UHGV virus genome: UHGV-0354001
Length of the DNA stretch: 39,506 nt
Origin: a virus
Direction: 5' to 3' (one strand)
This document shows, one piece after another, positions 36,001-39,506 of the stretch. A program made the position numbers. Each line of letters opens with the position of its first letter. The stretch's first letter is position 1.

Positions 36001-39000
36001 GCGGACAGCACCACGGACCAGTTGCAGAACAGAACGCTCTGGTCATCGTACACTGAAATCATCGATGTGAAACAGTGCTACCCGAACACGGCCATTGTGG
36101 GGCTGCAGGTGGATGCGGAGCAGTTCGGCGGCCAGCAGATGACGGTGAACTACCATATCCGCGGTCGCATCATTCAGGTGCCGTCAAACTATGACCCGGA
36201 AAAACGCACGTACAGTGGTATCTGGGACGGCAGTCTGAAACCGGCATACAGCAACAATCCGGCCTGGTGTCTGTGGGACATGCTGACTCACCCGCGCTAC
36301 GGCATGGGAAAACGTCTGGGGGCGGCGGATGTGGACAAGTGGGCGCTGTATGCCATCGGGCAGTACTGCGACCAGACGGTCCCGGATGGTTTCGGGGGGA
36401 CCGAGCCGCGGATGACCTTTAATGCGTACCTGGCACAACAGCGTAAGGCGTGGGACGTTCTCAGTGATTTCTGCTCTGCGATGCGCTGTATGCCGGTATG
36501 GAACGGTCAGACGCTGACGTTCGTTCAGGACCGCCCGTCGGATGTGGTGTGGCCGTACACCAACAGCGATGTGGTGGTGGATGATAACGGCGTGGGATTC
36601 CGCTACAGCTTCAGTGCCCTGAAGGACCGGCACACGGCGGTGGAGGTGAATTACACCGACCCGCAGAACGGCTGGCAGACCTCCACGGAACTGGTGGAAG
36701 ACCCGGAAGCCATACTGCGCTACGGACGCAACCTGCTGAAGATGGACGCGTTCGGCTGTACCAGCCGCGGTCAGGCCCACCGTGCCGGACTGTGGGTGAT
36801 AAAGACCGAACTGCTGGAAACGCAGACGGTGGATTTCACGCTCGGGTCTCAGGGGCTGCGGCACACACCCGGTGACATCATTGAAATCTGTGATAACGAC
36901 TATGCCGGGACCCTGACCGGCGGACGTGTCCTGTCCATTGATGCTGCCACCCGCACCCTGACGCTGGACCGTGAAGTGACACTTCCGGAGACCGGTGCCG
37001 CCACGGTGAACCTGATTAACGGCAGTGGTAAGCCGGTGAGTGTGGACATCACCGAACACCCCGCGCCGGACCGGATACAGGTCAGTACCCTGCCTGATGG
37101 TGTGGAGACATACGGGGTGTGGGGACTCTCCCTGCCGTCACTGCGCCGTCGCCTGTTCCGCTGTGTCTCCATCCGGGAAAACACGGACGGCACCTTTGCC
37201 ATCACGGCGGTGCAGCACGTACCGGAAAAAGAAGCCATCGTGGATAACGGGGCCCGCTTTGAGCCGCAGTCAGGCTCCCTGAACAGCGTTATCCCACCGG
37301 CAGTACAGCACCTGACGGTGGAGGTGAGCGCAGCTGACGGCCAGTATCTGGCGCAGGCTAAATGGGACACGCCGCGGGTGGTGAAGGGCGTGCGCTTCAG
37401 TCTGCGCCTGACCAGTGGTAAGGGAACGGATGCCAGACTGCTGACCACCGCCATCACTGCCGATACGGAGCACCGTTTCAGCGGCCTGCCACTGGGGGAA
37501 TACACCCTGACGGTGCGGGCCATTAACAGCTACGGCCAGCAGGGCGAACCTGCGACCACCACCTTCCGGATTAACGCGCCTGCAAAACCCGCCACCATTG
37601 AGCTGACGCCGGGGTATTTTCAGATAACGGCGGTACCGGTGCTGGCGGTGTATGACCCGACGGTGCAGTTTGAATTCTGGTTCTCAGAAAAACGCATCAC
37701 GAACACAGCACAGGTGGAAAAATCTGCCCGTTATCTGGGGACCGGCAGTCAGTGGACTGTCCAGGGGAGCCGGATTAAGCCGGGGACGGATTTCTGGTTT
37801 TACGTGCGAAGCGTCAACCTGGTGGGAAAATCTGCTTTTGTGGAAGCCAGCGGGCAGCCCAGCAATGATGGTGAAGGGTATCTGGAAATTTTCCGGGGGC
37901 TGATAGATGAGACGCTTCTGGGGCAGGCACTGAAAGAGCGCATTGATGCTTCAGCGCTGCGTACGGAGGTCACGCAACTGGAAGAAGATATCCGTCAGCG
38001 GATGGACACGGATATCGCAGAAGTGACCCGGAAAATCGGGAAGGCGGAAAACAGCCTCACGCAGCTGGTTGCGAAAAAGAATGAGGACCAGACACTGGCC
38101 ATCGCGCAGGTGAGCCAGAAAGTGGACCGGGTGAGCAGTGAAATCTCACAGACTGTCAGCCAGGGGCAGTCAGAAAACGCCCGACAGATAGCACAGGTCC
38201 GCCAGTACGTGGATAAAAAAGGGAGTGAAATTACCTCGACCACGGATAAAAAGCTGGGTGACCAGGCCGTGACCATACAGCAAATCCAGCGGGTTCAGTC
38301 AGACACGCGCAATGAGCTGAATGCCATGTATATGCTGAAGGTGCAGAAAACAAAAAACGGTATTCCCTATGTGGCCGGGATTGGCGCGGGGATTGAGGAT
38401 GTTGATGGTCAGACCCTGAGTAACATTCTGCTGCAGGCCGATCGCATTGCGATGATTACCCCGGAGAACGGCAACACCACGCCGCTGTTTGTGGCGCAGG
38501 GGAATCAGCTGTTCATGAACGACGTGTTCCTGAAGCGACTGTTTGCGGTGAGCATCACGTCATCCGGCAATCCTCCGACGTTTTCCCTGACGCCGGATGG
38601 CAGGCTGACAGCCCGCAATGCGGATATCAGTGGAGCCATCACGGCGAATACCGGCACGCTCAATAATGTCACCATTAACAAGAACTGTGTCATCAGAGGG
38701 AAACTGTCTGCAAACCAGATTGAAGGCGATCTCGTTAAAACAGTGGGTAAGGCTTTCCCTCGTGACTCCCGTGCACCGAAGCGTTGGCCATCAGGAACCA
38801 TTACCGTCAGGGTTTATGACGATCAGCCGTTTAACCGGCAGATTGTTATTCCGGCGGTGGCTTTCAGCGGTGCCAGACATGAGCGGGAGAACAGCGATAC
38901 TTATTCGTCATGCCGCCTGATAGTGAAGAAAAACGGTGCTGAAATTTATAACCGTACCGCGATGGATAATACGCTGGTTTACAGTGGTGTTATTGATATG

Positions 39001-39506
39001 CCTGCTGGTCGCGGCGACATGACGCTGGAGTTTTCTGTATCAGCATGGTGGGTAAATGGCTGGTATCCCACAGCAAGTATCAGCGATTTGCTGGTTGTTG
39101 TGATGAAGAAAGCCACTGCAGGCATCACGATTAGCTGAATTTTATAACCCATATACGGGCGCCAGAAATGGCGCCTTTTTTATTGCAGAAAAGCGAGAGG
39201 TAATTATGCGTAAATTATGTGCAGCCATTTTGTCCGCAGCCATCTGTCTGTCCGTATCCGGTGCGCCTGCATGGGCGTCTGAACATCAGTCCACACTGAG
39301 CGCGGGGTATCTTCATGCCCGTACGAACGCTCCCGGCAGCGATAATCTGAACGGGATTAACGTGAAATACCGTTATGAGTTTACGGACGCGCTGGGGCTG
39401 ATTACGTCCTTCAGTTATGCCAATGCTGAGGATGAGCAAAAAACGCACTACAGCGATACCCGCTGGCATGAAGATTCCGTGCGTAACCGCTGGTTCAGCG
39501 TGATGG

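Follow-up and report, generated by a model that had tools for sequence, protein, structure and literature searches.

A lambda-type J tail-tip protein with a long, predicted helical shaft and a tip domain of the 1A2/A8 clade in the lambdoid prophage UHGV-0354001

The UHGV virus genome UHGV-0354001, a stretch of 39,506 nucleotides (nt) that is called the window throughout, contains a complete J gene. Judged from its sequence, the product is a J tail-tip and central-fibre protein of the lambda type, which deviates from lambda J mainly in an extended, predicted helical shaft and in a strongly diverged receptor-binding tip. The tip belongs by sequence to the same clade as the tips 1A2 and A8, and we regard it as probable that the window J uses OmpC instead of LamB as its receptor. 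Identity profiles along the gene furthermore identify it as a recombinant, which combines a hub end of the Shiga toxin (Stx) phage type (PhiR5_1/Stx2a) with a fibre-and-tip cassette of the PhiR40_1 type. The gene and its parts are located as follows.

35446..39138, plus strand: complete J gene (tail-tip, central tail fibre and host-specificity protein), 1230 amino acids plus stop codon, a single intact open reading frame (ORF)
35446..37269, plus strand: hub/baseplate part, residues 1–608, with FNIII-A_GpJ (PF24801) and Phage-tail_3 (PF13550), among others; identity of 77% with lambda and of 97.7% with the J type of PhiR5_1 and the long-tailed Stx2a phages
37270..37893, plus strand: two Ig/FNIII-like domains (Ig_J, residues 609–712; Ig_J_second, residues 714–816), Pfam matches with E values of ~1e-40 each
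37545..37695, plus strand, approximate: recombination junction in the second Ig/FNIII domain (J nt ~2100–2250, residues 700–750), from identities in 150-nt windows and from protein identities of the segments; identity to PhiR5_1-type J of 94–99% on the upstream side, to PhiR40_1 J of 99–100% on the downstream side
37894..38343, plus strand: predicted alpha-helical shaft, residues ~817–966, counterpart of the three-helix alpha-helical shaft (AHS) of lambda at about three times its length
37912..38346, plus strand: five consecutive 29-residue units with starts at residues 823, 852, 881, 910 and 939, from self-similarity at the protein level
37948..38259, plus strand: segment without counterpart in lambda J, residues 835–938, net gain of 98 amino acids, from global and multiple alignments
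38344..38703, plus strand: beta-prism central straight fibre, residues ~967–1086; Phage_Tail_Tip (PF09327) matches residues 944–1071; 58% identical to lambda
38704..39135, plus strand: receptor-binding domain, residues 1087–1230; Ig_GpJ_C (PF12421) at residues 1100–1230; 42% identical to lambda, 62% to A8, 90% to 1A2 and 100% to PhiR40_1

Comparison with lambda J and occurrence in E. coli

Homology, domain order and gene neighbourhood all point to the lambda type. A phmmer comparison with lambda J structures (8iyk and others) gave E = 0 over residues 1–846 and 939–1229. Six J-specific Pfam families were found in the lambda order, every one of them far above its curated cut-off, and the domain series comprised FNIII-A, the hub (Phage-tail_3), two Ig/FNIII domains, the tail-tip fibre and a C-terminal Ig receptor-binding domain. 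The ORFs of the window follow each other in the order tape measure, M, L, K, I, J, lom, and all tail genes upstream of J are intact ORFs. The position of J after I and before lom matches the annotation of a near-identical E. coli prophage and of phage PhiR40_1. Domain order, Pfam families, gene neighbourhood (I upstream, lom downstream) and tip family (PF12421) are common to the window J and lambda gpJ (P03749; PDB 8iyk, 8xcg, 8xci, 8xcj, and 8xck), whereas the shaft length, the tip sequence and the predicted receptor, OmpC versus LamB, set them apart.

The window J was aligned globally with lambda J (1132 amino acids, from NC_001416). Residues 1–834 are collinear with lambda J at an identity of ~73%; the first 606 residues align without gaps at 77% identity, and the identity is 60% between residues 657 and 834. 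Residues 835–938 are unmatched in lambda J except for a spurious block of three residues. Residues 939–1230 pair with lambda residues 840–1132, with identities of 58% in the beta-prism (residues 941–1086) and 42.4% (61/144) in the tip (residues 1087–1230). A preliminary description had concerned the interval 37860–39138, i.e. J residues 806–1230 and the stop codon, which is the 3′ third of the gene with stalk, fibre and tip. It had stated that the protein is about 100 amino acids longer than lambda J and that the C-terminal ~150 residues diverge from the LamB-binding domain, and the alignment bears out both statements (net gain of 98 residues; 42.4% identity over the last 144). The N-terminal ~900 residues had been said to track lambda gpJ, and collinearity was indeed found, but it stops near residue 835 and not at 900. 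Likewise, the coiled-coil-like stretch that had been placed at residues 820–950 has its equivalent in the extra proline-free, helix-predicted residues 835–938, but it cannot be called novel, since the phages PhiR40_1 and PhiR49_2 have it with 100% identity and 726 of 5426 complete E. coli genomes contain it.

These genomes contain the extra segment at 1060 sites, in genes that bear the annotation gpJ, and the two phages are its sole carriers among 50,697 phage records. The window J is thus a common and correctly annotatable variant of E. coli prophages and no new kind of protein, and as an ordinary gene of a common prophage type it matters little in itself. PhiR40_1 and PhiR49_2 (PV340560 and PV340570; Brenes & Laub 2025) encode J proteins of 1232 amino acids each. 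Over window residues 817–1230, the whole long shaft included, they are 99–100% identical to the window J, whereas their N-terminal 700 residues are only ~76% identical to the window J, the hub end of which is of the PhiR5_1/Stx2a-phage type. The GenBank record of PhiR40_1 names E. coli ECOR13 as the host, and the phage is a member of a panel of ECOR-derived temperate phages that was used for plaquing (PMC13190303). Because PhiR40_1 forms plaques and its J is 99–100% identical to the window J from residue 817 onward, a J protein with such a shaft and tip can be taken to work.

This has a bearing on the possibility that the gene is a relic of a defective prophage with features that have no present function. 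Many lambdoid prophages of E. coli are defective, and the window stops inside lom, short of the side-fibre genes and of the integration end. However, the 3.7-kb ORF of J is uninterrupted, the upstream tail genes have been retained as intact ORFs, a plaque-forming phage has nearly the same 414 C-terminal residues in its J, and ~96 complete genomes have kept the late region with ~97–98% identity across 80% or more of its length. A relic is therefore very improbable.

The tip domain and the predicted receptor

In spite of the low identity to lambda, the C-terminus of the window J is still matched by PF12421 (Ig_GpJ_C) with 130 bits against a cut-off of 26, and thus, the tip is a diverged member of the tip domain of lambda and not another domain. 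A close similarity to lambda residues ~985–1132, including the receptor-contact loops, would be expected for a tip of the LamB type, and it was not observed. The variable stretches of the two tips are unrelated; the lambda versions are SKRTVSGRTT and TSTRHSADIPPYT. Another C-terminal ending of lambda J, which would make the window tip lambda-like, was rejected: according to the alignment lambda ends with VQVMVIKKQALGISVV, and the rejected ending is that of the 1A2/O157-prophage type.

A PDB search with the C-terminus of the window J retrieved "A8 gpJ 713" (9wca, 9wcb) as a better match than lambda, and in the entry 9wcb A8 gpJ713 forms a complex with "Outer membrane porin C". The tips 1A2 and A8 are natural J tips of E. 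coli prophages that were joined to lambda J after residue 964 for the retargeting of lambda particles (Brodel et al., Nature 2024, PMC11338833). Particles with these tips were selected on a lamB deletion strain, and in a lamB ompC double deletion strain they depend on the supply of a suitable OmpC (PMC11338833). The OmpC alleles of K-12 and EDL933 are both used by A8, whereas 1A2 uses the allele of EDL933 and not that of K-12 (PMC11338833); this allele use was taken from the main text and the Fig. 1b source data. In the source data of Extended Data Fig. 2 of the same article, panel C (EDL933 OmpC) has the same numbers for 1A2 and A8 as panel B (K-12 OmpC), which conflicts with the main text.

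The 1A2 gene was taken from the supplement of PMC11338833, where optical character recognition had led to frameshifts, and a k-mer check was performed wherever the window and PhiR5_1 have different residues. At every such position between residues 1064 and 1205, 1A2 agrees with the PhiR5_1-type tip, and at residue 1228 it agrees with the window. The tip of the window (residues 1087–1230) is identical to that of 1A2 at 130 of 144 positions (90.3%), and the whole swapped segment (residues 1064–1230) at 145 of 167. The 1A2 tip has the length and the loop layout of the window tip, and it is essentially of the type of PhiR5_1 and the long-tailed Stx2a phages. A8 belongs to the same clade and has the C-terminal motif in common with the window, but the identity is 62% over 137 aligned residues, and two loops differ by indels, one of 4 and one of 5 residues. 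The tips in phage records fell into cleanly separated classes of identity to the window tip, which makes the latter a sequence member of the 1A2/A8 clade.

100%: PhiR40_1
~90%: long-tailed Stx2a phages, PPompW prophages, phage 2G7b
~60%: A8-like group, e.g. mEp460, ev017 and Stx1a phages
~42%: lambda
~40%: a further group, e.g. cdtI and 2851

For the 1A2 and A8 chimeras, LamB-independent and OmpC-dependent DNA delivery has been shown. As 1A2 and A8 are only ~60% identical to each other and both use OmpC, this porin is probably the receptor for the whole clade. The host specificity is set by the C-terminus of J, and the replacement of lambda J by the tail fibre gene of phage 434 changes the receptor from LamB to OmpC (review PMC3509688). 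A receptor other than LamB, as predicted in the preliminary description, is the best-supported reading, by homology to two OmpC-using tips.

Several points weigh against OmpC as the receptor, or at least against an equivalence with 1A2. The receptor call is drawn from 90% sequence identity to 1A2, and 1A2 and A8 already differ from each other in the OmpC alleles that they accept. The differences from 1A2 number 14, of which 13, read against the PhiR5_1-type tip, fall on the lambda-equivalent positions 1013, 1031, 1045–1053, 1062, 1074, 1079, 1090, 1092, 1103 and 1106; the fourteenth is Ser versus Thr at lambda-equivalent position 1130 (window residue 1228). Several of these positions adjoin residues 1012, 1040, 1077 and 1107, which we take to be sites of host-range mutations in lambda. 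In addition, few changes in lambda J suffice to add OmpF as a receptor (PMC11101478). The location of the differences indicates that the accepted OmpC alleles, and less probably the receptor itself, may differ from those of 1A2.

The more radical alternative is that the divergence of 10% from 1A2 has changed the receptor itself, so that the window tip binds another outer-membrane protein, e.g. OmpF, another porin, or still LamB. Most of the differences from 1A2 do cluster in three short variable stretches, AWWVNGW among them, the behaviour of 1A2 and A8 shows that the specificity of clade members responds to the tip sequence, and the gain of OmpF by lambda J requires point mutations only (discussed in PMC11101478). 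On the other hand, the use of OmpC by two members with ~60% identity suggests this porin for the whole clade, and the window tip lies well within the clade and has only 42% identity to the LamB-binding domain of lambda. A change of the receptor itself is thus unlikely, and OmpC remains the predicted receptor.

The clade is of practical interest, as the 1A2/A8 tips are already in use for the retargeting of lambda-based DNA delivery particles to OmpC. The tip allele of the window occurs in hundreds of genomes and in a plaque-forming phage; as a natural variant that is already at hand, it may be able to use other OmpC alleles.

The predicted helical shaft and its 29-residue units

The preliminary description had treated the longer stalk and the diverged tip together as signs of a receptor change. 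The OmpC-using chimeras, however, retain the short shaft of lambda (fusion at lambda residue 964; PMC11338833), and natural carriers of a 1A2-type tip such as PhiR5_1 (J of 1157 amino acids) have an intermediate shaft, whereas 1A2 itself was assayed on the short lambda shaft. Among the best 120 database matches, a shaft of 164 residues was combined with a 1A2-like tip in 55 cases and with an A8-like tip in 49. Shaft and tip are thus separable, and the receptor switch does not involve the greater length of the shaft.

Both flanks of the extra residues align to the AHS of lambda, which places the addition inside a lambda-type shaft. The name AHS, for a three-helix alpha-helical shaft, comes from the lambda structure paper, which also reported that the shaft turns by ~180 degrees upon binding of LamB (PMC11101478). 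In the window J, residues 817–966 contain no proline at all in 150 residues. The hydrophobicity of the shaft has a period of 3.65 residues, with a power of 84.6 compared to 55.6 ± 13.4 in shuffled sequences. An AlphaFold2 model of residues 786–1230 as a monomer contained helices at residues ~810–820, 825–880 and 886–958, with a low confidence (predicted local distance difference test, pLDDT, 41; predicted template modelling score, pTM, 0.30). The extra stretch 835–938 thus looks helical. This view is weakened by the modest size of the hydrophobic signal, about two standard deviations above the shuffles, and by the pLDDT of 41, which makes the modelled helices a weak support for helicity.

The shaft is built from units of 29 residues. 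The mean BLOSUM62 score per residue was 0.98 at an offset of 29 and 0.71 at an offset of 58, whereas the best offset of shuffled sequences averaged 0.12 ± 0.14 and never exceeded 0.875 in 500 shuffles. With the sequence arranged in lines of 29 residues that begin at residue 823, the hydrophobic columns are in register and are spaced 3-4-3-4, so each unit corresponds to four heptads plus one residue. Five such units are present in the window J, compared to ~1.5 in lambda. Tandem Repeats Finder detected no DNA tandem repeat in 37800–38450, and the repeat is visible in the protein alone, which indicates that the units are old. Residues 821–965, the shaft by itself, had no match in the PDB at E ≤ 1 in a sequence search. 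The weak PDB matches 9l9p and 23gd were rejected as shaft homologues because they stem from the beta-prism part. A protein search with the shaft alone matched 36 J fragments of E. coli or Shigella, and no distant relatives were among them.

The length of the shaft region was determined as the distance between the conserved motifs GYL..F and YVAGIG.

lambda J: 63 residues
PhiR5_1 J: 91 residues
window J: 164 residues
P0007-type J: 200 residues
P0074 J: 233 residues

Natural homologues differ from the window J by whole units: P0007 and P0011 have one more 29-residue unit plus a heptad, and P0074 has two more units plus 11 residues. No description of a J-shaft length polymorphism in 29-residue units was found in the literature searched, and the units and copy-number classes of the shaft are, together with the recombination junction described below, a modestly new and descriptive result.

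A mechanism for the window J can be proposed by analogy with lambda, for which open and closed structures (PMC11101478) and the bending of the fibre in situ (PMC12617516) have been described. The J trimer would close the tail tip and extend into the central tail fibre. The tip would bind trimeric OmpC instead of LamB, presumably with one tip domain per porin subunit. Binding would then spread the tip domains, twist the prism and flip the helical shaft, whereupon the fibre would fold aside and the tube would open for the ejection of the DNA. The extra 98 shaft residues would lengthen the reach of the tip, compared to a lambda fibre of ~30 nm, and would not be needed for the change of receptor. 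If they are fully helical and uninterrupted, they add roughly 14–15 nm to the fibre, an estimate that uses the usual helical rise. In lambda, the distance between the FNIII domains and the tip of the fibre is 29.7 nm (PMC11101478). Two points count against this scheme, namely that the added length presupposes an uninterrupted coiled coil and that the flip has been demonstrated solely for the short shaft of lambda.

We considered what a longer shaft might be good for. One idea is that it is an adaptive module for reach and that the number of 29-residue units adapts the length of the fibre to how thick the O-antigen or capsule layer above the porin is. The shaft classes are discrete (63, 91, 164, 200 and 233 residues), some of the differences between them are whole 29-residue units, and the long shaft is frequent in natural isolates (13% of the complete genomes) and absent from lambda, the host of which, K-12, is a rough strain without O-antigen. 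Yet nothing at the DNA level, where no repeat was detected, points to a rapid expansion of these old repeats at present; the short shaft of lambda is enough for chimeras to infect clinical strains with a capsule if suitable side fibres are provided (PMC11338833); and the variation of shaft length could be neutral. An adaptive reach module is therefore possible, but it is held only tentatively. A related reading, which we find rather doubtful, is that the J shaft is a modular ruler whose length shifts in 29-residue steps via unequal recombination and is selected either to match the depth of the surface polysaccharide of the host or to tune the receptor-triggered flip. If this were true, fibre length would be a second determinant of host range, independent of the tip domain. 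As the shaft is the part that flips upon receptor binding in lambda, the natural variants from 63 to 233 residues would be convenient material for testing the effect of fibre length on adsorption and triggering.

Recombinant origin of the gene and prophage context

The junction between the two parts of J was mapped by calculating the nucleotide identities to the J genes of PhiR5_1 and PhiR40_1 in successive 150-nt windows along the gene. From nt 1 to ~1950, the identity to PhiR5_1 was mostly 92–99% (86% in one window), and that to PhiR40_1 was 57–86%. From nt 2251 to the last window compared (3451–3600), the identity to PhiR40_1 was 99–100%. The first 368 nt 3′ of J, including the start of lom, were 97% identical to PhiR40_1. 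The junction within J suggests that fibre and tip move as a cassette between tail backgrounds.

Two features follow downstream of J.

39157..39186, plus strand: terminator-like hairpin followed by a T run, just 3′ of J, from a pattern scan (consensus match only)
39207..39506, plus strand: start of a gene for a lom-like (Ail/Lom) outer-membrane protein, cut by the end of the window; from sequence, position as in lambda

The locus 3′ of J is annotated as Lom in lambda, in PhiR40_1 and in an E. coli genome with an identical flank.

The window as a whole is a Stx-phage-type lambdoid prophage, but it lacks stx genes. It also encodes an 824-amino-acid protein with an exonuclease domain, a repressor-like helix-turn-helix protein and a replication protein with a DnaT domain, and its head gene is a ClpP-capsid fusion. 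At 14254–16966 the layout of an Stx-phage locus was found, with one tRNA-Met and two tRNA-Arg genes (14254–14503), followed by Rfam matches to STnc100 (14579–14787, plus strand) and to AsxR, the "anti-stx2 sRNA" (14791–14843, minus strand). A NanS-p-like esterase of 656 amino acids (DUF1737, SASA, DUF6645) comes after STnc100 and AsxR, and only ~490 bp are present at the position of stxAB. DicF RNA was matched at the Rfam gathering level at 3177–3228 (minus strand, 61 bits). A match to the sok antitoxin RNA at 9358–9538 (plus strand) was borderline, with 61 bits against a cut-off of 59, and overlaps the start of the ORF for a C5 cytosine DNA methylase. The methylase gene adjoins a QueH-like gene (epoxyqueuosine reductase family) in the early region (8604–10593), and the two genes could have a bearing on the modification of DNA or of tRNA by the prophage.

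The spacer between I and J (35103–35445) is AT-rich and has a length of 343 bp, compared to ~60 bp in lambda and PhiR40_1. It contains an ORF of 113 amino acids without a Pfam match, an Rfam search of the spacer gave no match above threshold, and in one RefSeq genome with an identical spacer (strain PCP06238) no gene is annotated there. A strong hairpin with a T run is located on the plus strand near 35310–35346. On the minus strand, a near-consensus sigma-70 promoter was found (TTCACA-16-TATAAT, 35240 to 35213, 11 of 12 positions as in the consensus), and at 35134–35118 there is a hairpin with a T run that resembles a terminator. This promoter and terminator could yield a transcript of ~100 nt, and the spacer may hold a small RNA or a tiny moron.

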